From a virus (lineage: Duplodnaviria > Heunggongvirae > Uroviricota > Caudoviricetes): 22,252 bases of DNA. The notes under the pieces are model-generated. The model was not told the DNA's origin. It saw nothing but the letters and a program-made list of their open reading frames with translations, and searched no databases. The position numbers and the translations under genes were made by a program. Below are positions 2,848-20,238 of this stretch, one piece after another. The stretch spans positions 1-22,252 of the IMG/VR virus record IMGVR_UViG_2693429719_000008. One strand, given 5' to 3'. How positions within the stretch are numbered: the stretch's first letter is position 1; the number at the start of each line of letters is the position of its first letter.

Positions 2848-3135
2848 TTAAATTTGACCTCTTGACTTTTCTATTTCATAAAGACCCACTCCATCTCCTG
2901 CATCAAGCAATGCATAATATTCAGGGTCTTTAATTCGATCTATCTGATTTGAAATTTCAAGTAACTCATCCTTTAAAGAATCTACTTCAGAGGCTAATCT
3001 TTCATTTTCATCCCTCAGCTCCCTAACTTCTTGCTGTAAAGACAGTAAGCTCTTCCCGGTTGCTGGAAATCGGTTTATCTCATGCCAGATTGCAACTATT
3101 AAAGCTAATACCGCAACGGTTAAAGATGTCATCAT
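2848..3135 (-). CDS. Small membrane-anchored coiled-coil protein, function unknown
   Basis: 95 aa with an N-terminal hydrophobic segment (SLTVAVLALIVAIW) followed by heptad-like charged sequence (LQQEVRELRDENERLASEVDSLKDELLEI); GGGAGA-type RBS before ATGATG. Confidence 0.5.
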   Translation of the reverse strand: MMTSLTVAVLALIVAIWHEINRFPATGKSLLSLQQEVRELRDENERLASEVDSLKDELLEISNQIDRIKDPEYYALLDAGDGVGLYEIEKSRGQI

Positions 3136-3163
3136 TGGTCTCCCTTTACTTTACAGGATATAG

Positions 3164-8941: not shown

Positions 8942-9574
8942 TCAGGCCTTGGAAAGCTTGAGCTTACCCTTTACGTGCAGAGTGTTAATTAACCAGAAGG
9001 CCCCGAGCAAACACATACAATGCGCGCTAGTGACTAACTTACAAATACGAATGCGATTTTCTTCAAGATCAGGAGGTAGCTCTTTCATCAACGCTATAGC
9101 GTAGATTCCATCCTTGAGAATTGGCTCAACAACTTGATGCACGTAGCCACCATGGTTAATCTCTTCTAACTTTATGTTTTTAATCGATTCTGCGAGTTTA
9201 TCAACCTCTTCATTTGTAATTACATATTCAATTTTATGAGCGTACTTGTTACGTATTGTGTTGAGCTCAGCCATAGCGTCTGCAAGCGAGACAGGAAGCC
9301 CTAACAGAACTGCGGCAGACAGCTTTGACGCAAAATACTTATAGCTTCTTATCGAATTGTATTTTTCAGAGCCATCAGGTCGTAAGTTTTCAATAACAAC
9401 CCGAAGAAAGTCCTCATGAATTAGCATCAATTTTAATAGCGCGGCAGACTCATCCTCATAGTTAGCTATCGAGGCCATTTTATTAAGATCTAGAAAATAG
9501 CCAAAGTCATGATCGATTTTCACGTAGTTACCCTCATCCGTTGTTGGACTTTGTTCAATTCGAGAGAATTTCAT
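8942..9574 (-). CDS. Hypothetical protein with a possible HEPN-type Rx4H motif; candidate effector of the nin cargo cassette
   Basis: 210 aa, AT-rich; contains NTIRNKYAHK (R-x4-H); predicted mostly helical; start ATG overlaps the stop of an upstream 58-aa ORF. Confidence 0.5.
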   Translation of the reverse strand: MKFSRIEQSPTTDEGNYVKIDHDFGYFLDLNKMASIANYEDESAALLKLMLIHEDFLRVVIENLRPDGSEKYNSIRSYKYFASKLSAAVLLGLPVSLADAMAELNTIRNKYAHKIEYVITNEEVDKLAESIKNIKLEEINHGGYVHQVVEPILKDGIYAIALMKELPPDLEENRIRICKLVTSAHCMCLLGAFWLINTLHVKGKLKLSKA

Positions 9575-9909: not shown

Positions 9910-10521
9910 TTACTGCAACCTTTCCTGACGGAAATATGGTAACACTCGACTCCACTTATCATCCTGCCAAGGCTGGAATTTTACATGTGCCGTTTCTCTG
10001 GCGAGGATTGCTCGCGCTCTGTTGAGTATCTGGGGATATTCTTGCTCGATAGAAGTAAAGCGACCGGCTTCGCGGTGCTCCGCGACCTGAAGAAGTGGAG
10101 TAACGTTCTGGCAGGCAGTTAACATCACATCACTTGCTCGCCATAACCAAGCAAGTGTGCAAAGTTCGTTATCAGTGAATTGTTTTGTGATTGGGGATTG
10201 TTGAATTTCTCGATCGAGAAGATCCAGCACCCAGCGGCGGAATTCTTTGGCCACAGGAGTACGAGCAAACATGGCGATCAGATGGGCGCCTCGCAGGGAG
10301 AAAATGCGTATTGTTTTCTGGTAGTTCCCTGAGACACTCAAATTGAGGGTCTCAGTCATATCTGCCCTAAATTCATCGGAATTTCGATCGTAGATCTGAG
10401 TAACGGCATCAGATTTTTTATATCCGAGAGCTTGAGCAATCTCAACGGCAGTAAGCCAGATATTGTTGTTGTGGTTAATAGGATGGAATTTTGTTTGATG
10501 AAAGACTAGTTGTGTGCTCAT
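9910..10521 (-). CDS. Bro-N / antirepressor-like protein
   Basis: 203 aa; the N-terminal region (...NIWLTAVEIAQALGYKKSDAVTQIY...IFSLRGAHLIAMFARTPVAKEFRRWVLDLLD) resembles Bro-N/AntA-type phage regulatory domains. Confidence 0.55.
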   Translation of the reverse strand: MSTQLVFHQTKFHPINHNNNIWLTAVEIAQALGYKKSDAVTQIYDRNSDEFRADMTETLNLSVSGNYQKTIRIFSLRGAHLIAMFARTPVAKEFRRWVLDLLDREIQQSPITKQFTDNELCTLAWLWRASDVMLTACQNVTPLLQVAEHREAGRFTSIEQEYPQILNRARAILARETAHVKFQPWQDDKWSRVLPYFRQERLQ

Positions 10522-10676
10522 GGTGATTACCTATAAATCAAGTTAACCACCACCGCTGACGCCAATCAGTTTGGTGGTGAGACATGTAGGGTTGGCGTAA
10601 CCGGGGTAATCAACCGGCCCGACCGAAGTCGGCCCTACACGCCCCACCATAATTCAGATGTGCGTATGCTTACGAC

Positions 10677-10701
10677 AATAAAAAACACGCTCGCGGCGTG
10701 T
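10677..10701 (-). terminator. Rho-independent terminator for minus-strand (lambda-rightward) transcription
   Basis: Minus-strand ACACGC-CGCGA-GCGTGT hairpin followed by TTTTTATT. Confidence 0.6.
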
Positions 10702-10791
10702 AGTAGTCGCGATTACCTTATCCGGGACGCCAATCCCGTGTGCCGATTTTGCGGCAACGCGTAAGAATATATCCCCAGATAAATCATATCG

Positions 10792-12317: not shown

Positions 12318-13333
12318 AGATCCACCCCGTAAATCCAGTCAGTGTTTGTCAGGTCGAGTTTTGGTTTGCCGACTGTCACGCCAGCCTGTTGCTTGTTCCG
12401 GTTGATTTCGAGCTGGGTCCACTTGTCGCGGAGTTTGGCCGGACTCAGCACGTTACCGGACCAGAAGTTGTCCTGGCAGGCCCAGCGGAACAGTACACAC
12501 ATGTCGCGGTGGTTACGTCCATCACGTTCACGCATCAGACGGATATCGTTAGCCCACCCTGCAAAATTCGGTTTTCTGGCTGATGGCGCGATGGTCTTCA
12601 CCATGTCAAACATCCACTCTGCGGCGGTCAGGTCTTCTGCTGTCCCCCACTTGCTGCCGCTCTGAATCGCAGCATCCGCTTTCACCACAGGAAGGTCGTT
12701 TTCTGGCAGGTCAGAGGATTCGCCAGAATTCTCGGACGAATAAGGTTTTATATTGTCTTTTGTTAGTTTGTCTTTTGTGTTTACCTGATTCGGGTAAGTG
12801 CCTTTACCTGATTTGGGTAAACTTTTCTTACCTGATTCAGGTAAATTTACCTCTTTCAGGTAAACTTTATTTTTCTTACCTGATTCGGGTAATTTTGACC
12901 ATTCACTGACCACATTATTAATGCCGATATTCCGCCCGCTCTGAATAAAAATCCCACGCTTTACCAGAACACTTTTTGCAGCAGAACACTTGTGCGGCAA
13001 TATCCCGGTCAACTCGGAAAGTTGCTCGTTGCTCACCCAATCCAGTTTTTTATTAAAGCCATATGTTTTGCGCATGACAGCCAGGAAGACCAGAAGCTGG
13101 TGCTGTGTTAATCCGGCCAGCATTACAGCTTCCAGCAACTCATTTGCAATGCGCGTATAACCATCATCGAGATCTGCCACGCGCGGCTCCTTTTGTGCCG
13201 CATCCGGCACTGGAAAATTGAATATCTCAGCAGTGTTTGCCATAATTCCTCCCGCAATGAGTGTGTTACGATTTGCATCTGAAAGTCGGTTCTGTTCCCG
13301 CAGACCGACTTTCGCCATTTTTGAACCTGTCAT
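12314..13333 (-). CDS. O: Replication initiator O, hybrid: non-lambda N-terminal iteron-binding domain with lambda-like C-terminal P-interacting domain (alternative start at 13243)
   Basis: N-terminal region has the VADLDDGY motif but otherwise differs from lambda O; the C-terminal ~100 aa (AAEWMFDMVKTIAPSARKPNFAGWANDIRLMRERDGRNHRDMCVLFRWACQD...) matches lambda O; iterons are embedded in the gene. Confidence 0.85.
   Translation of the reverse strand: MTGSKMAKVGLREQNRLSDANRNTLIAGGIMANTAEIFNFPVPDAAQKEPRVADLDDGYTRIANELLEAVMLAGLTQHQLLVFLAVMRKTYGFNKKLDWVSNEQLSELTGILPHKCSAAKSVLVKRGIFIQSGRNIGINNVVSEWSKLPESGKKNKVYLKEVNLPESGKKSLPKSGKGTYPNQVNTKDKLTKDNIKPYSSENSGESSDLPENDLPVVKADAAIQSGSKWGTAEDLTAAEWMFDMVKTIAPSARKPNFAGWANDIRLMRERDGRNHRDMCVLFRWACQDNFWSGNVLSPAKLRDKWTQLEINRNKQQAGVTVGKPKLDLTNTDWIYGVDL
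12781..12892. repeat. Replication origin iterons inside O: five copies of TTACCTGATTCGGGTAA (one degenerate), with an adjacent AT-rich tract at about 12740-12780
   Basis: Palindromic 17-mers at 12781, 12804, 12828, 12847 (degenerate) and 12876; the AT-rich block lies on the downstream side in the O direction, as in lambda ori. Confidence 0.8.
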
Positions 13334-13899: not shown

Positions 13900-14127
13900 T
13901 TAGGCGGCAGAATTACTCGCGTTAAACAATGGTGCGAGGTCGGGACGAATATCTGCTGGCTTAATCTTTCCACCAGTGGCTGAGACAATTTTCATTACAT
14001 AGCGGGCATCAATTCCGCCACCGTGTAGCCAACGCCAAACAGTGGGCTGGGCTACACCGCATAGATCTGCCAGTCGTTTTTGACTACCTGTAATACTGAT
14101 TGCGAGTTGAATGGTTTGATTTGTCAT
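13900..14127 (-). CDS. cro: Cro-like repressor (helix-turn-helix)
   Basis: 75 aa from the ATG at 14127 (the track ORF begins 2 codons upstream at TTG): MTNQTIQLAISITGSQKRLADLCGVAQPTVWRWLHGG...; divergent from cI across the operator region; AGGA RBS. Confidence 0.65.
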   Translation of the reverse strand: MTNQTIQLAISITGSQKRLADLCGVAQPTVWRWLHGGGIDARYVMKIVSATGGKIKPADIRPDLAPLFNASNSAA

Positions 14128-14237
14128 TATCAATTCCTATTGGTATTACAATGAATGGATAATAGCAATGCGTATTAACCATGGCAATAGCAAAACGTGT
14201 TTTGACCATCAATACGCAAGCGTATAAATTAAAACTT
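14128..14237. promoter_or_regulatory. OR region: three 16-bp operator sites at 25-bp spacing with divergent pR and pRM
   Basis: Sites AATAGCAATGCGTATT (14161-14176), AATAGCAAAACGTGTT (14186-14201), AATACGCAAGCGTATA (14211-14226). pR on the minus strand: -35 TTGCCA (14182-14187), 17-nt spacer, -10 TATTAT (14159-14164). pRM -10 TATAAA at 14223-14228 places the start close to the cI ATG. Confidence 0.6.
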
Positions 14238-14930
14238 ATGAAAAAAGAAACTCTTGCTGATCGCTTAAACCTAGCGATGGAACAATCTGGGATGTCTCAA
14301 GGCGCTCTTGCAAAGGCGTCTGGCGTAGCTCAACCCACAATCTGGAGACTGACAAGCGGCAACGCGCGCGGCTCAACAAAAATTGTTGAAATAGCTAATG
14401 CATTGGGTGTTCGAACAGAGTGGCTCTCATCAGGCATAGGCCCGATGAGAAATGACGGTCAACAATCAGGGAAGCCTACTGTCAACCATTCCAAATACTT
14501 CAAGATTGACGTTCTTGATATAGAAGTGAGTGCCGGGCCGGGAGTCATCAACCGTGAGTTTGTAGAAGTCCTACGCTCGGTTGAGTACTCGTTTGACGAT
14601 GCTCGTCACATGTTCGATGGCAGGAAGGCGGAAAATATCCGCATCATTAACGTACGTGGTGACAGCATGTCAGGAACAATCGAACCAGGTGATCTGCTGT
14701 TCGTTGATATCACGGTTAAATCTTTCGACGGTGATGGCATCTATGCGTTTCTGTACGACGACACAGCCCATGTAAAGCGCCTGCAAATGATGAAGGATAA
14801 GCTGTTGGTTATCTCTGATAACAAGAGCTACTCACCGTGGGACCCGATCGAGAAAGACGAGATGAACCGGGTGTTCATTTTTGGGAAAGTCATCGGGAGC
14901 ATGCCGCAGACCTACAGGAAGCATGGGTAG
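14238..14930 (+). CDS. cI: CI-type prophage repressor (N-terminal HTH, C-terminal S24 LexA-like autopeptidase)
   Basis: MKKETLADRLNLAMEQSGMSQGALAKASGVAQPTIWRL... HTH, then VRGDSMSGTIEPGDLLFVD and AHVKRL (Ser/Lys dyad context). The track ORF starts at 14181, but that would place operators inside the coding sequence. Confidence 0.85.
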   Translation: MKKETLADRLNLAMEQSGMSQGALAKASGVAQPTIWRLTSGNARGSTKIVEIANALGVRTEWLSSGIGPMRNDGQQSGKPTVNHSKYFKIDVLDIEVSAGPGVINREFVEVLRSVEYSFDDARHMFDGRKAENIRIINVRGDSMSGTIEPGDLLFVDITVKSFDGDGIYAFLYDDTAHVKRLQMMKDKLLVISDNKSYSPWDPIEKDEMNRVFIFGKVIGSMPQTYRKHG

Positions 14931-15053: not shown

Positions 15054-16076
15054 ATGAAAGATAACAGACAAAAAGTCGTTCATTATAAAAAAGCAGTAAT
15101 CCCACACAGCAAATCATCATTACAAAACATACTACTTAGTATTATAGGTGAGGGCGGCGTTGCAGAAAAAGTACTTAGTAGACAAGAAAAAATAACACCT
15201 TCAGATGAAAATTCGGGGTATCGTTTCTTAAATAAAAGCGACACATACAAAACTATACTTTTTGGGCAACTGGTTTTATTTGAAAAAGACAAAAGCCAGT
15301 CTCTATTAGAGCTTAGTGATAATGTTAAATTTTATGACATTAACTCCATCACGTCTAATGATATAATTATTGATGGAGATAAACGTAGTGACAAAAAAAG
15401 AGAGTTTGTAGATTCAATTTTATATTTTGGTGTACTAAACAACCATGTCATGATCGTTCAATCCACATCGCTTCGAGCAAGGGAGCTTGAGGCGCATTTG
15501 AATTGGCTAATTAATACATTCACAGATGAAAAAGAATCTGTGTTAATGCTTCAAGATAAGCCATCCGAAGAAACGATGAAAAAAATGGAGAAAGCACCAG
15601 CCAAGAGCATAAAAATTGGTGGATTACCCATTACTTCAGAAGTTAAAAATTCAGAGAACCAAACACCCTCCTTTTCAAATGGTTCGGTGAAGACAATAAA
15701 ATACCGCCCAATAGGGAAAGGAGGTGCGCTACTAAAAGCATTTTTTGGCGATAACTGGGCAAATGATATAAACATTAAAGATTCATTAGATGAGGCCAAT
15801 TTACAAGTAAGCCTCGAGATTACATACTTCAGAAAAACAAATGATAGCGGTCAAGCTGTTATAGACAGTATTGCTACCTCACTACGACATCTAGATGAGG
15901 ATGATATTAGCATCAAACTTCAAGGCGGTGGGGAAATAACGGGAAAAGAGATAAAATTATCCGGAAAAATTAGCGTTGAACATAACAATGGCATTATTGA
16001 TGAAAATGATTTATTCTTAAAAATGCATAAGTGGCTGTTCTCAAAACTTGATGCCGGAGAATTGGTTGCAAAATAA
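15054..16076 (+). CDS. Hypothetical soluble protein in the rexA position, candidate phage-exclusion component
   Basis: 340 aa, AT-rich, directly downstream of cI on the same strand; no Walker or nuclease motif recognised. Confidence 0.5.
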   Translation: MKDNRQKVVHYKKAVIPHSKSSLQNILLSIIGEGGVAEKVLSRQEKITPSDENSGYRFLNKSDTYKTILFGQLVLFEKDKSQSLLELSDNVKFYDINSITSNDIIIDGDKRSDKKREFVDSILYFGVLNNHVMIVQSTSLRARELEAHLNWLINTFTDEKESVLMLQDKPSEETMKKMEKAPAKSIKIGGLPITSEVKNSENQTPSFSNGSVKTIKYRPIGKGGALLKAFFGDNWANDINIKDSLDEANLQVSLEITYFRKTNDSGQAVIDSIATSLRHLDEDDISIKLQGGGEITGKEIKLSGKISVEHNNGIIDENDLFLKMHKWLFSKLDAGELVAK

Positions 16077-16097
16077 CCTACCAAAAGGAGGGCGATA

Positions 16098-16604
16098 ATG
16101 AAATCGAACATCATCCACCTTATTGGTATGTTGGTCTTCTATTTTGCTGGTTACTTTTTGTTCAAGTTAGCATTGGGCTATATTACACCGGGTGTTGTCC
16201 TAACAGCTCCGTGGGCTGTGGTTGGACTCATGCAATTGCCATTATCATATTGTATACAAGCCATTTTTAAGGCAAATGAGGCCAATGACCACTCGTCTTT
16301 AACCCCTAGTGAGGTTAGGCGATTAGTGCCAATAGTCAAATCCAAGAGACTGAAATTGGTTTTATTATTAGCTTTCTATGTATTTTCAACTTTGTTTGTA
16401 ATCTTGGGGTTAATAGCAAGCACAAATGATCAAGCCCTACTCTTCAGGGTCTTAAAAATTTCAGGTGGATTACTCTTTATTTCTCTCTATACCAGTGTAT
16501 TCGTTCATAAAATAATGGTTGAGCTTCAAGAGTTTAAAGCGTTATTAAACCGAAGAGAATCAGAGAAGAAGGAAAGAGAGTCACTCCTGGATAGATTAAA
16601 ATGA
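16098..16604 (+). CDS. Four-TM membrane protein in the rexB position, candidate phage-exclusion component
   Basis: 168 aa with four hydrophobic segments and a charged C-terminal tail (NRRESEKKERESLLDRLK); GGAGG RBS; starts 22 nt after the preceding gene. Confidence 0.5.
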   Translation: MKSNIIHLIGMLVFYFAGYFLFKLALGYITPGVVLTAPWAVVGLMQLPLSYCIQAIFKANEANDHSSLTPSEVRRLVPIVKSKRLKLVLLLAFYVFSTLFVILGLIASTNDQALLFRVLKISGGLLFISLYTSVFVHKIMVELQEFKALLNRRESEKKERESLLDRLK

Positions 16605-16613
16605 CCCCCCCTC

Positions 16614-16640
16614 CCCGGCCGTCGTGCCGGGTTTTCTTTT
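16614..16640 (+). terminator. Rho-independent terminator ending the cI / rex-position operon
   Basis: CCCGGC-CGTCGT-GCCGGG hairpin followed by TTTTCTTTT, 10 nt after the stop. Confidence 0.7.
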
Positions 16641-16765
16641 GCCTCCCCTCATCACACACCGTTCAAAAAACCACCATAACCCCCGCTTCAGTTATCGCTA
16701 TGCGATGCAAGTCACAAAATTAATTCCTTTTGCTATCAAACAGTTAATATCAAAATACATCAATC

Positions 16766-16808
16766 AATAGCAATAAGTATTGATATCACCAATAGCAATA
16801 GCTATTAT
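16766..16808 (+). promoter_or_regulatory. OL / pL: two operator sites overlapping a near-consensus sigma70 promoter reading rightward in the window
   Basis: Operators AATAGCAATAAGTATT (16766-16781) and AATAGCAATAGCTATT (16791-16806), 25-bp spacing, same consensus as OR; -35 TTGATA (16780-16785), 17-nt spacer, -10 TATTAT (16803-16808); operator/promoter overlap geometry is identical to pR. Confidence 0.6.
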
Positions 16809-16881
16809 TACCATGTCGCAACAACACAACGATACGGCAACCACCTGATTCGCCGTTGCGATGACCGCTTAGATCCGCAGC

Positions 16882-17292
16882 TTGAATTTCAGCAGGCTCC
16901 GGGGAGTGCGAGGGGTGAAGCGGACGCGTGAACGTCGGTGTGACCAGCTCAAATCAACTCAACACTTCATACCTCAGTCGCTTCAACGAGGCGGCTTAGT
17001 TATGACAACCGGCGGCCATCCACCGCCTGAATACGCGCAGAAGTCTCTATATGTTCAGCAGCCCAGCTTACGGGCAGGAGTTTTTATGGTTCATCAACAT
17101 TACGGAACTCAGACCGTTAATCGCGGTGCCGTCCGGCCAGGTATGCTGGTTAAACACAAAGATGGTACCTGGACGGCATCAGCTAATTTGCGCGGTCGGC
17201 TTTACTTGCATCGCGGCATCGAACGAACGTACACAAAAGATTTGCTCGTGGAGGTTTACCTGAATGGTACTGGCGGTGGTCTGAGCCACTAA
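16882..17292 (+). CDS. Hypothetical basic protein in the N position (TTG start in the track; alternative ATG at 17002 with GAGG RBS)
   Basis: If read from TTG the N-terminus contains an Arg-rich stretch (RGVRGVKRTRERR) reminiscent of N-type ARM motifs, but the rest shows no resemblance to lambda N. Confidence 0.3.
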   Translation: MNFSRLRGVRGVKRTRERRCDQLKSTQHFIPQSLQRGGLVMTTGGHPPPEYAQKSLYVQQPSLRAGVFMVHQHYGTQTVNRGAVRPGMLVKHKDGTWTASANLRGRLYLHRGIERTYTKDLLVEVYLNGTGGGLSH

Positions 17293-17296
17293 CTAC

Positions 17297-17611
17297 TCAC
17301 TTGTTTGGGCCGTGTGGAGCCAAAGCAAATTCAAGGTTGTAGATACTCCCATCAGGGGCTTTGAAATCAACCTCAAACCGAGATGGCGGATTGAATGGAT
17401 CGAGTACATTTTCTGCTACGCATGTAGATCTCCAATTGATATGGCCTTTGCCAAGCGAGCGAGATTCCCACCAAGCTCTCCAGGTCTGGTCTTGCGGTTG
17501 ATCACTCCCCTTTTCCCTTACATACCAATGATTCTTTTTCGACTGCTTACCCATTTCTGCGGTTGGGTACATCGGAGAAGACTTTAACTTATCAATCAGC
17601 ATTCTAGACAC
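17297..17611 (-). CDS. Hypothetical protein transcribed opposite to the pL operon
   Basis: 104-aa ORF whose stop lies 4 nt from the stop of the convergent 16882..17292 ORF; no family recognised. Confidence 0.4.
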   Translation of the reverse strand: MSRMLIDKLKSSPMYPTAEMGKQSKKNHWYVREKGSDQPQDQTWRAWWESRSLGKGHINWRSTCVAENVLDPFNPPSRFEVDFKAPDGSIYNLEFALAPHGPNK

Positions 17612-17740
17612 CTTATTTATCAGATTTTGAGCAAGACATAGTGTGATCCAACATTTTGATTAATCAAGCGAGTTCATTCAAACAACTATGCAGTTAACGC
17701 ACTGTCTGGATCCGCACATCAAAATTTCAGGAGTTTATCC

Positions 17741-18037
17741 ATGAACGCTTATTACATTCAGGATCGTCTTGAGGCTCAGAGCTGGGCGCGTCACTACCAG
17801 CAGATCGCCCGTGAAGAGAAAGAGGCAGAACTGGCAGACGACATGGAAAAAGGCCTGCCCCAGCACCTGTTTGAATCACTCTGCATCGATCATTTGCAAC
17901 GCCACGGGGCCAGCAAAAAAGCCATTACCCGTGCGTTTGATGACGATGTTGAGTTTCAGGAGCGCATGGCAGAACACATCCGGTACATGGTTGAAACCAT
18001 TGCTCACCACCAGGTTGATATTGATTCAGAGGTATAA
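17741..18037 (+). CDS. gam: Gam, RecBCD inhibitor (short 98-aa form)
   Basis: [60 protein letters not shown]... matches lambda Gam as I recall it; upstream frame is closed by a stop, so the long form is not encoded here. Confidence 0.95.
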
Positions 18038-18042
18038 AACGG

Positions 18043-18828
18043 ATGAGTACAGCACTCGCAACGCTGGCTGGGAAGCTGGCTGAACGTGTCGGCATGGATT
18101 CTGTCGACCCACAGGAACTGATCACCACTCTTCGTCAGACGGCATTTAAAGGTGATGCCAGCGATGCGCAGTTCATCGCATTGCTGATCGTCGCCAACCA
18201 GTACGGCCTTAATCCGTGGACGAAAGAAATTTACGCCTTCCCCGATAAGCAGAACGGCATCGTTCCGGTGGTGGGCGTTGATGGCTGGTCCCGCATCATC
18301 AACGAAAACCAGCAGTTTGACGGCATGGACTTTGAACAGGACAACGAATCCTGCACATGCCGGATTTACCGCAAAGACCGCAATCATCCGATCTGCGTTA
18401 CCGAGTGGATGGATGAATGCCGCCGCGAACCATTCAAAACCCGCGAAGGCAGAGAAATCACGGGGCCGTGGCAGTCGCATCCCAAACGGATGTTACGGCA
18501 TAAAGCCATGATTCAGTGTGCCCGTCTCGCCTTCGGATTTGCTGGTATCTATGACAAGGATGAAGCCGAGCGCATTGTCGAAAATACCGCATACACTGCA
18601 GAACGTCAGCCGGAACGCGACATCACTCCGGTTAACGATGAAACCATGCAGGAGATTAACACTCTGCTGATTGCCCTGGATAAAACATGGGATGACGACT
18701 TATTGCCGCTCTGTTCCCAGATATTTCGCCGCGACATTCGCGCATCGTCAGAACTGACACAGGCCGAAGCAGTGAAAGCTCTTGGATTCCTGAAACAGAA
18801 AGCCACTGAGCAGAAGGTGGCAGCATGA
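18043..18828 (+). CDS. bet: Bet (Red-beta) single-strand annealing protein
   Basis: 261 aa [66 protein letters not shown]... matches lambda Bet. Confidence 0.95.
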
Positions 18829-19505
18829 CACCGTACATTATCCTGCAGCGTACCGGGATCGACGTGAGAGCTGTCGAACAGGGGGATGATGCATGGCACA
18901 AATTACGGCTCGGCGTCATCACCGCTTCAGAAGTTCACAACGTGATAGCAAAGCCCCGATCAGGAAAGAAGTGGCCTGACATGAAAATGTCCTACTTCCA
19001 CACCCTGCTGGCTGAGGTTTGCACCGGTGTGGCTCCGGAAGTTAACGCTAAAGCGCTGGCCTGGGGAAAACAGTACGAGAACGACGCCAGAACCCTGTTT
19101 GAATTCACTTCCGGCGTGAATGTTACTGAATCCCCGATCATCTATCGCGACGAAAGTATGCGCACCGCCTGCTCTCCCGATGGTTTATGCAGTGACGGCA
19201 ATGGCCTTGAGCTGAAATGCCCGTTTACCTCCCGGGATTTCATGAAGTTCCGGCTCGGTGGTTTCGAGGCCATAAAGTCGGCTTACATGGCCCAGGTGCA
19301 GTACAGCATGTGGGTGACGCGAAAAGATGCCTGGTACTTTGCCAACTATGACCCGCGTATGAAGCGTGAAGGACTGCATTATGTCGTGGTTGAGCGGGAT
19401 GAAAAGTACATGGCGGGTTTTGACGAGATGGTGCCGGAGTTCATCGAAAAAATGGACGAGGCACTGGCTGAAATTGGTTTTGTATTTGGGGAGCAATGGC
19501 GATGA
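18825..19505 (+). CDS. exo: Exo (Red-alpha) 5'-3' exonuclease
   Basis: 226 aa [65 protein letters not shown]... matches lambda Exo. Confidence 0.95.
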
Positions 19506-20162: not shown

Positions 20163-20183
20163 GGAGCTACAGGCTCCTTTTTT
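20163..20183 (+). terminator. Weak rho-independent terminator in the early-left operon
   Basis: GGAGC-TACAG-GCTCC stem-loop followed by TTTTTT. Confidence 0.45.
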
Positions 20184-20238
20184 ATTATTCGCATTCACCC
20201 TCAAGCGTATTAACCAACAATTCAGGGATTAATGAAAG

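Follow-up and report, generated by a model that had tools for sequence, protein, structure and literature searches.

An N-less early-left leader with a candidate antiterminator RNA, a kilR-family gene and an antisense accessory cassette in a lambdoid Escherichia coli prophage

Introduction

Two described systems bear on how transcripts from the leftward early promoter (pL) of lambdoid phages are carried through the early-left operon. In lambda, the N gene and nutL lie between pL and kil/gam, a nut site consisting of boxA with a short boxB hairpin and occurring in both early operons. In phages without N, a put RNA (HK022 putL and putR, the putL-like RNA of HK639) of about 90 nucleotides (nt) with two hairpins, located in the case of putL just 3' of the promoter, acts in cis on RNA polymerase; put RNA has been reported to counteract termination of the intrinsic as well as the Rho type (PMC9378689). 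The region described here, positions 16600-17750 of a 22,252-nt stretch of tailed-phage DNA (IMG/VR record IMGVR_UViG_2693429719_000008; the whole stretch is called the window below), belongs to an N-less lambdoid (Bievrevirus-like) Escherichia coli prophage and forms its early-left control region. It is 99.9% identical to E. coli 88-3493, and the gene order of the window agrees with the prophage of that strain and with Bievrevirus coliphages such as 4A7 and Perceval.

Read from pL, the region contains an untranslated leader with two conserved elements (here called modules A and B), a kil gene, and, on the opposite strand and convergent with kil, a small gene that we call orf101 (Table 1). Module A resembles the put RNAs in belonging to a phage without N, in its length of about 90 nt, in its two hairpins and in its place just 3' of pL, with terminators further down the operon. 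The likeness to lambda N-nutL is one of map position, from pL to kil/gam, and some orf101-carrying relatives indeed have a lambda-type N there; the window differs in having no N ORF (open reading frame) or homolog, no boxB-like short hairpin beside its partial boxA match, and no such site in the pR operon. Taken as a whole, we consider it probable, with some reserve, that the locus is an N-less leader with a candidate antiterminator RNA, followed by kil and a promoter-bearing antisense orf101 cassette.

The stretch ahead of kil is conserved as nucleic acid

The plus strand carries a mechanically called ORF of 136 amino acids (aa), from a TTG at 16882 to 17292, in which a sequence-only reading of this DNA had seen a basic ORF of uncertain start, with an Arg-rich N-terminus if read from the TTG, while recognising neither N nor cIII nor kil. 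Judged by homology, only the last 68 codons are a gene and the long basic ORF is an artefact: residues 60-135 match phrog_294 ('Kil protein for bacterial septation inhibition', E 2.9e-36), the 68-aa product matches NCBIfam NF008465 ('FtsZ inhibitor protein', the Rac KilR model; E 9e-17, 60.8 bits), with its residues 1-66 aligned to positions 1-68 of 73, that is from the profile start, and its homologs belong to Pfam PF27398 KilR; residues 1-59 of the ORF have no PHROG, Pfam or NCBIfam match. The same 68-aa kil with an identical start is called by the Prokaryotic Genome Annotation Pipeline (PGAP) and RefSeq, its ATG lies 5 nt downstream of a Shine-Dalgarno sequence (AGGAG, 17076-17080), and its ratio of nonsynonymous to synonymous substitution rates (dN/dS) against close homologs is 0.06-0.09. 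The absence of N and cIII is borne out (no N, cIII, ral or sieB was recognised in the window from the ORF list or by Pfam and PHROG searches), that of kil is not, and the family check for N homology of this ORF leads to KilR instead.

Relative to Rac KilR of E. coli K-12 (NF008465, phrog_294, PF27398), the window Kil is homologous over its full length, 68 aa against a profile of 73 positions, and is likewise encoded in an early-left operon, 5' of recombination genes. Its 60.8 bits fall below the curated cut-off of 92 bits for the K-12 KilR subfamily, by which measure it is a divergent KilR relative and not the K-12 equivalog; its role as an inhibitor of FtsZ and cell division is predicted from the family, and thousands of E. 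coli genomes carry it under the NCBI label 'phage encoded cell division inhibitor'. We take it to be unrelated in sequence to the Kil of lambda.

Upstream of kil, the nucleotides are kept and the frame is not. Positions 16845-16962 are at least 93% identical in close relatives, within which the supposed long frame is broken by insertions and deletions of +1 (L033; such numbers denote comparison loci), +5 (a duplication in L103, L130 and L070) and -1 (L255-L258); the block GCGCAGAAGTCT is kept, yet is read in different frames in different phages; and in two relatives with the same kil the short ORF that opens at the in-frame ATG 17002 does not join it, ending after 10 codons in strain Cn5 and lying in another frame than kil in L133. 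The stretch 5' of kil is therefore conserved as nucleic acid and not as protein. The product from TTG 16882 would begin ...RGVRGVKRTRERRCDQLKS, which does resemble an arginine-rich motif, and in two phage records Kil is annotated at a length of 125-139 aa; both would suit an N-like basic antiterminator, possibly fused to Kil, that binds a nut site. Against such a protein stand the frame-breaking changes in nearly identical DNA, the first 59 residues with no family match in a region where PGAP and RefSeq call only 68 aa, the position of the TTG inside a covarying hairpin (hairpin 1 of module A), and the retention of the RNA motifs in two divergent loci, L109 and L180, in unrelated contexts; we regard it as very improbable. 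The Arg codons are best read as G/C-rich motifs of the leader RNA that happen to be in frame in the window strain, and the 125-139-aa Kil annotations are, in our view, over-annotation. By the same comparisons an N gene is lacking from the window, which offers no room for one, no family match and an Arg-rich frame that is not kept.

Module A is a widespread two-hairpin leader RNA

Module A begins about 45 nt after the predicted start site of pL and consists of two hairpins, the first with an 8-nt loop and a stem of 9-10 base pairs, set between invariant single-stranded motifs (Table 1). Among 16 coliphage records its identity does not fall below 93%; the oL/pL types that precede it are of several kinds, and it occurs in 2196 of 5426 complete E. 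coli genomes (about 40%), none of which has an annotated feature there. Two divergent copies, L109 and L180, keep the single-stranded motifs and change the stems compensatorily: the stems are CACUUG/CAGGUG and ACGGGC/GCCCGU in L109, and CUGAUGGUG/CACACAUCAG and GUGCACG/CGUGGGC in L180. In an alignment of 17 sequences, double changes affect 6 pairs; shuffles give 0.8 (none of 500 reaches 6) and slid registers 0-2. All compensatory changes come from these two divergent copies, and the structure was derived from the same sequences that entered the test.

Rfam, at gathering and at permissive thresholds, gives no match in 16550-17800. Scanning genome contigs with a 17-mer returned chance matches only, in GC-rich genomes, and a metagenome scan set up to leave out the window type yielded, beyond two chance matches, nothing but close variants; the 15-mer GATGACCGCTTAGAT also matches the coding sequence of a terminase motif, 'DDRLD', in unrelated phages. 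A long-range pairing of CCGCUU with AAGCGG was considered and rejected, most copies having AAACGG and L180 being unable to form it.

In one relative, module A occupies the slot of a put RNA

The L109 locus, a viral contig, and HK639 are near-identical on both sides of a variable core. The common 5' flank is the initial transcribed region of pL, CCATCGAAACGAAACATCGA.AGCTGAG.GAAGTTAGCCAGCGGCGAAGTGGAG, and the 3' flank is TTACCAGCAGCTCTTTGCGAGGGGCTGACGGTAAACAA; exactly between them, HK639 has its annotated 'putL-like antiterminator RNA' (NC_016158 34187-34312, an identity that rests on the GenBank feature and its citation in PMC9378689) and L109 has module A. Downstream the two agree in layout: after module A in L109 come four ORFs, and after the putL-like RNA in HK639 a few, and in both there follow a strong intrinsic terminator and then module B, kil, a gam-like gene and recT. 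Across 135 distinct loci with module B, 75 have module A, 20 a put RNA of the HK022/HK639 type and 4 an N gene (sought 5' of module B by a crude test, a regular expression and phmmer with four queries), none has two of these, and 36 are unclassified, which leaves the exclusivity incomplete.

From the swap in the HK639 slot, the mutual exclusivity and the terminators ahead, we infer a cis-acting antiterminator of a new sequence class, one that would work like a put RNA and not be one; we offer this tentatively, as a reading for which the chances fall a little short of even. On this proposal module A would act in cis on RNA polymerase, as put RNA does, and would carry pL transcripts past two obstacles: the untranslated, C-rich RNA between kil and gam, which would be exposed to Rho, and an intrinsic-terminator-like site at 20163-20187, between the orf61-like and traR-like genes, because of which expression of xis and int from pL would need read-through. 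The wider form of the proposal, in which module A is a protein-independent equivalent of put that replaces N-nutL in a prophage lineage present in about 40% of sequenced E. coli and lets antisense cassettes of the orf101 type be tolerated, is possible but stays short of probable. Both antiterminator activity and use of the beta-prime zinc-binding domain are for module A only candidate properties.

Several observations weigh against this interpretation, besides the origin of the covariation in two copies and the 36 unclassified loci. Module A has no sequence similarity to HK022 putL/putR or HK639 putL by BLAST or motif search, the put motifs GAACGGCGCG, AAACCAUGCGUCGG and GGCGGG.UCAGGA.GA.CGGCAAU having no match in it, so that it agrees with these RNAs as a two-stem RNA just 3' of pL in a phage without N and not in shared motifs; its start at about +45 contrasts with +3 for HK022 putL; it is present in a single copy in the window, with no second copy in the pR operon; and its folding energy is not better than that of shuffled sequences (z -0.1 to -1.4; for the whole leader z = 0.10).

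These same features, the lack of similarity to known put RNAs, the unremarkable folding scores and the single copy per phage, would suit an element that is not an antiterminator at all, such as one of messenger RNA (mRNA) stability or processing, a translational or Rho-modulating leader, or a nut-like site for a factor acting in trans. Its invariant single-stranded motifs could bind a protein, and CGCUUAGA (also CGCTTAGA) agrees with 5 of the 8 positions of lambda boxA (CGCTCTTA) in our own comparison. Its exact exchange for HK639 putL within common flanks, the exclusion of put and N in the 99 classified loci, and the strong terminator downstream in L109, ahead of kil, gam and recT, argue the other way, and for a factor acting in trans no candidate is encoded between pL and kil in the window. 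We consider this alternative possible, if somewhat doubtful. The search for boxA/boxB nut sites suggested by the sequence-only reading yielded only the 5-of-8 boxA match, with no short boxB and no related sequence in the pR operon, so that a nut site in the lambda sense is not seen in the window.

Two further loci deserve mention in their own right. L010 (6400-7060, minus strand), a relative that carries Kil and orf101, shares the initial transcribed sequence of pL with HK639 and L109; this is followed by about 600 nt of GC-rich non-coding leader with put-like motifs such as UAAUACGGUCGGG and CGGCG, and may represent a third kind of leader cassette at the same slot. In phi80 (X13065; L003 2685-2981), the 'N' of the 1988 record is a 98-aa protein without an arginine-rich N-terminus (MIDDIKRIDSMINALRNMKQ...), and the label may not reflect a lambda-type N.

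Module B precedes kil and other genes

Module B, between module A and kil, is found in at least 120 IMG/VR viral contigs and also in phi80, Klebsiella phage KO-TP1, BHUENT6, Enterobacter phages and HK639 (example loci are L259 (HK639) 9040-9210, L003 (phi80) 3001-3140, L014 and L015); it has no Rfam match, and its motifs have no second copy in the pR operon. In stem-loop 1, 7 of 8 pairs show compensatory changes, 95.8% of the cells are paired and 41 are double-change cells, against 12.4 in shuffles; slid controls collapse. The small hairpin before kil covaries as well. The gene that follows is kil in the window and other genes elsewhere, and an intrinsic terminator precedes the module in most phages.

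The invariant 28-nt block UUAUGACAACCGGCGGCCAUCCACCGCC holds a GGCGG/CCGCC hairpin (17011-17027) together with the short ORF from ATG 17002. Downstream of this hairpin, HK639 and other variants have a run of U, and the hairpin carries a terminator annotation there; the window has no such run. The product of the short ORF begins MTTGGHPPP, and codons 4-9 form the two arms of the hairpin; as a speculation, stalling at the PPP codons would place a ribosome over the 3' arm, and module B would then be a translation-controlled attenuator.

orf101 is a portable cassette set against pL

On the minus strand, a mechanical ORF of 104 aa runs from a GTG at 17611 to 17297. The sequence-only reading had given this gene as 104 aa with its stop 4 nt from that of the plus-strand ORF; the spacing stands (stop codons at 17290-17292 for kil and 17297-17299 for orf101) and the length does not, the start kept in all homologs being ATG 17602, for 101 aa, and GTG 17611 falling within the Shine-Dalgarno sequence AAGGTG (17614-17609). 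In all pairwise comparisons the proportion of nonsynonymous differences is 0.13-0.19 and that of synonymous ones 0.76-0.88, synonymous sites being saturated; orf101 is a real protein-coding gene under purifying selection. Its family is tiny, making up 12 clusters among 5.8 billion proteins and, among 1.84 billion representatives, essentially one at the 50% level, and its G+C content (GC) is 43.5%, against about 51% for kil and gam. No Pfam, NCBIfam, PADLOC or fold match was obtained, PHROGs label it as of unknown function, and no transmembrane segment is evident in its sequence; nothing in these searches points to the anti-defence role that had been suggested for it.

Upstream lies a promoter footprint, cTTGATTAA, 16 nt and CA(G/A)AAT, which the majority of 33 distinct upstream sequences retain, with a spacer of varying sequence; it is sigma-70-like and has no operator repeats. 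Together with the patchy presence and deviant composition of the gene, this agrees with the suggestion that orf101 is a moron, which its promoter footprint, purifying selection, lower GC and portability support; on sequence criteria it is a portable, promoter-bearing cassette set against pL, a moron but for the lack of a terminator of its own. It keeps this orientation to pL wherever it is seen, whether it adjoins the 3' end of kil or, in a few phages, that of N. Two points count against it here: the -10 element in the window is weak, with 3 of 6 positions, and was missed by a consensus promoter scan, and the minus strand has no terminator-like site downstream of 17297, which sets the gene apart from a textbook moron.

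Of 5426 E. coli genomes, 28 have the cassette, at 99.6% identity or more throughout, and 2229 have the pL-leader-kil region. In relatives without it, kil and gam are 75 nt apart, and the divergence of the window from them begins within the last 80 or so nt of kil. Of 41 viral contigs, 35 have orf101 tail-to-tail with a KilR-type gene at a gap of exactly 4 nt, as do all six contig loci examined, of which two are from genome assemblies of Cronobacter turicensis and four from assemblies of metagenomes or read sets. Such constancy across very different Kil proteins and neighbours could point to a dedicated partner of Kil (an antidote, an immunity factor or a cofactor, whether by binding Kil or by protecting FtsZ) and not to an independent moron. 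Such a partnership we judge rather improbable. Orf101 is 74-83% identical throughout, whether the linked Kil is 34% or 81% identical, so that co-evolution of the two, considered in its own right, was rejected; in L298 and L303, orf101 is convergent with a lambda-type N gene at a 12-nt gap, with a tL1-like terminator beyond orf101; in L284 no kil adjoins it, and it comes after a 933W-type N, a small ORF and a terminator; in L009, a decayed prophage, it is intact beside a truncated kil remnant of 40 aa; and about 2200 E. coli genomes have this kil without orf101.

As the sequence-only reading stated, transcription from pL must cross orf101 in antisense. From kil to gam, 448 nt (17293-17740) are untranslated and antisense to orf101, with no translatable ORF with a Shine-Dalgarno sequence on the plus strand and with a C-rich, G-poor window at 17466-17543; since a promoter scan finds no plus-strand promoter between kil and gam, gam, bet and exo are reached from pL only through antisense orf101. 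A pL transcript would thus contain, in order, an untranslated structured leader of about 270 nt (modules A and B), kil, the 448-nt antisense stretch and gam-bet-exo. Given its own promoter footprint, purifying selection, low GC and portability, control of orf101 by convergent transcription is plausible. In a lysogen, pL would be repressed by CI at the two oL operators and the cassette promoter left free, so that orf101 would be transcribed; its read-through RNA, antisense to kil and the leader, may damp leaky synthesis of Kil. On induction, strong convergent transcription from pL, about 815 base pairs away, would shut it down. As far as sequence can tell, orf101 is probably an antisense moron made in the lysogen and silenced by pL; that it serves the lysogen, in exclusion or defence, is a guess from its position.

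The opposite assignment, to the lytic cycle, with orf101 expressed after induction from its own or another promoter, for example for anti-defence or host takeover, is favoured by its location among early genes and by the fact that small orphan early proteins are often anti-defence factors. It seems unlikely to us: the gene points against the sole strong early promoter, its footprint is sigma-70-like without operator repeats, convergent transcription from pL should lower and not raise its expression after induction, and it is intact in the degraded prophage L009.

Lambda rexAB, lambda sieB and Rac sieB are accessory genes expressed in the lysogen and located in or beside the pL operon. Like them, orf101 is small, has a promoter of its own within the early-left region, is lower in GC than its flanks and is patchy in distribution, and with Rac sieB it shares the orientation against pL (Rac sieB being, as we take it, antisense in the Rac early-left operon beside kilR). 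Its sequence is not homologous to SieB, Rex or another known family, and it lacks a terminator. One protein, P0012 (99 aa), is identical to Orf101 over its first 27-30 or so residues and matches lambda P (PF06992) in the rest, apparently a recombination or assembly junction that joined the 5' end of orf101 to a replication gene.

Layout of the prophage around the early-left region

Table 1. Features of the window, with positions, strands and sequence elements.
Feature	Position	Strand	Description
cI	14238-14930	+	230 aa; start as called by PGAP
Two cargo genes between cI and pL	15054-16076; 16098-16604	+	the latter membrane-like
Intrinsic terminator of the operon of cI and the two cargo genes	16614-16640	+	CCCGGCCGTCGTGCCGGG then TTTTCTTTTG; just 5' of oL/pL
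oL operators	16765-16782; 16790-16807	+	overlap pL
pL	-35 16780-16785; -10 16803-16808	+	TTGATA, TATTAT; predicted transcription start about 16815
Module A (leader RNA)	16860-16950	+	GAUGACCGCUUAGAU; hairpin 1, 16875-16902 (loop AAUUUCAG); GGGGAGUGCGAGGGGUGAA; hairpin 2, 16920-16939 (loop CGUGAA); GUGACCAGCU
Module B (leader element)	16968-17085	+	CAUACC; stem-loop 1, 16976-16996; invariant UUAUGACAACCGGCGGCCAUCCACCGCC; variable linker; hairpin 17061-17075; Shine-Dalgarno AGGAG 17076-17080
kil	17086-17292	+	68 aa from ATG 17086; KilR family, predicted FtsZ/cell-division inhibitor
orf101	17297-17602	-	101 aa; WP_000904075, phrog_16212; convergent with kil
orf101 promoter and 5' untranslated region	17609-17667	-	-35 TTGATT 17667-17662; -10 CACACT 17645-17640 (16-nt spacer) or CACTAT 17643-17638
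gam	17741-18037	+	
bet	18043-18828	+	
exo	18825-19505	+	
Intrinsic-terminator-like site in the pL operon	20163-20187	+	GGAGCTACAGGCTCC then TTTTTTATTA; between the orf61-like and traR-like genes, before xis and int

The pL promoter has 10 of 12 consensus positions, and the repeat of its operators, CAATAGCAAT..TATT, recurs at oR (14125-14208). The mechanical cI ORF (249 aa, 14181-14930) starts at an ATG that falls within the oR repeats, and the PGAP start at 14238 (230 aa) is more plausible than 14181. The gam product matches PF06064 Gam (E 3e-65); 3' of exo, on the plus strand, follow lambda orf60a/63/61-like genes, a TraR-like gene, xis and int. The terminator-like site among these has an identical copy at the same intergenic position in phage Perceval (L001 7188-7212).

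Between cI and pL, the slot that in lambda holds rexAB, the window encodes a 340-aa protein (15054-16076) and a 168-aa membrane protein (16098-16604), matching phrog_3482 and phrog_16807, both labelled function unknown, with no PADLOC match. The cargo of this slot differs among otherwise similar prophages (15054-16604 on the plus strand here, L005 1049-2650, L002 2580-3996); in O157:H7 it is a SIR2-family protein, and in 4A7 a protein of unknown function with an ASCH-domain protein, and the slot looks like a hot spot for defence cargo.

The pR operon runs in the opposite direction, with cro-like, cII/YdaT-like, O and P genes, Ant behind C4/isrK RNAs, NinB, a Q-like antiterminator and an endolysin. 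In this part of the minus strand (10570-10756 and 9910-10521), Rfam recognises a C4 antisense RNA (74 bits) and isrK (61 bits) directly 5' of the Ant gene; to judge from these matches, C4/isrK-Ant is a secondary immunity module of the P1/P7 or Gifsy kind within a lambdoid prophage. Within the O-like replication gene, a unit of about 24 nt (TTACCTGATTCGGGTAA-like), itself an inverted repeat, stands five times in tandem at 12776-12896; these units are presumably the origin iterons.

Implications

Taken alone, the pair of genes is fairly ordinary, one a KilR homolog and the other an orphan accessory gene, and its clarification corrects annotations that stretch Kil to 125-139 aa in some phage records. 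The orf101 cassette offers a clean natural case of a promoter-bearing gene head-on to pL, useful for the study of transcriptional interference and of antisense control of a toxic gene. The larger consequence lies in the leader, for a very common lineage of E. coli prophages runs its early-left operon without N. If module A is indeed a second put-like class, it would double the known set of RNAs able to reprogram RNA polymerase with no protein involved, and would provide a natural comparison for how such RNAs engage the polymerase.

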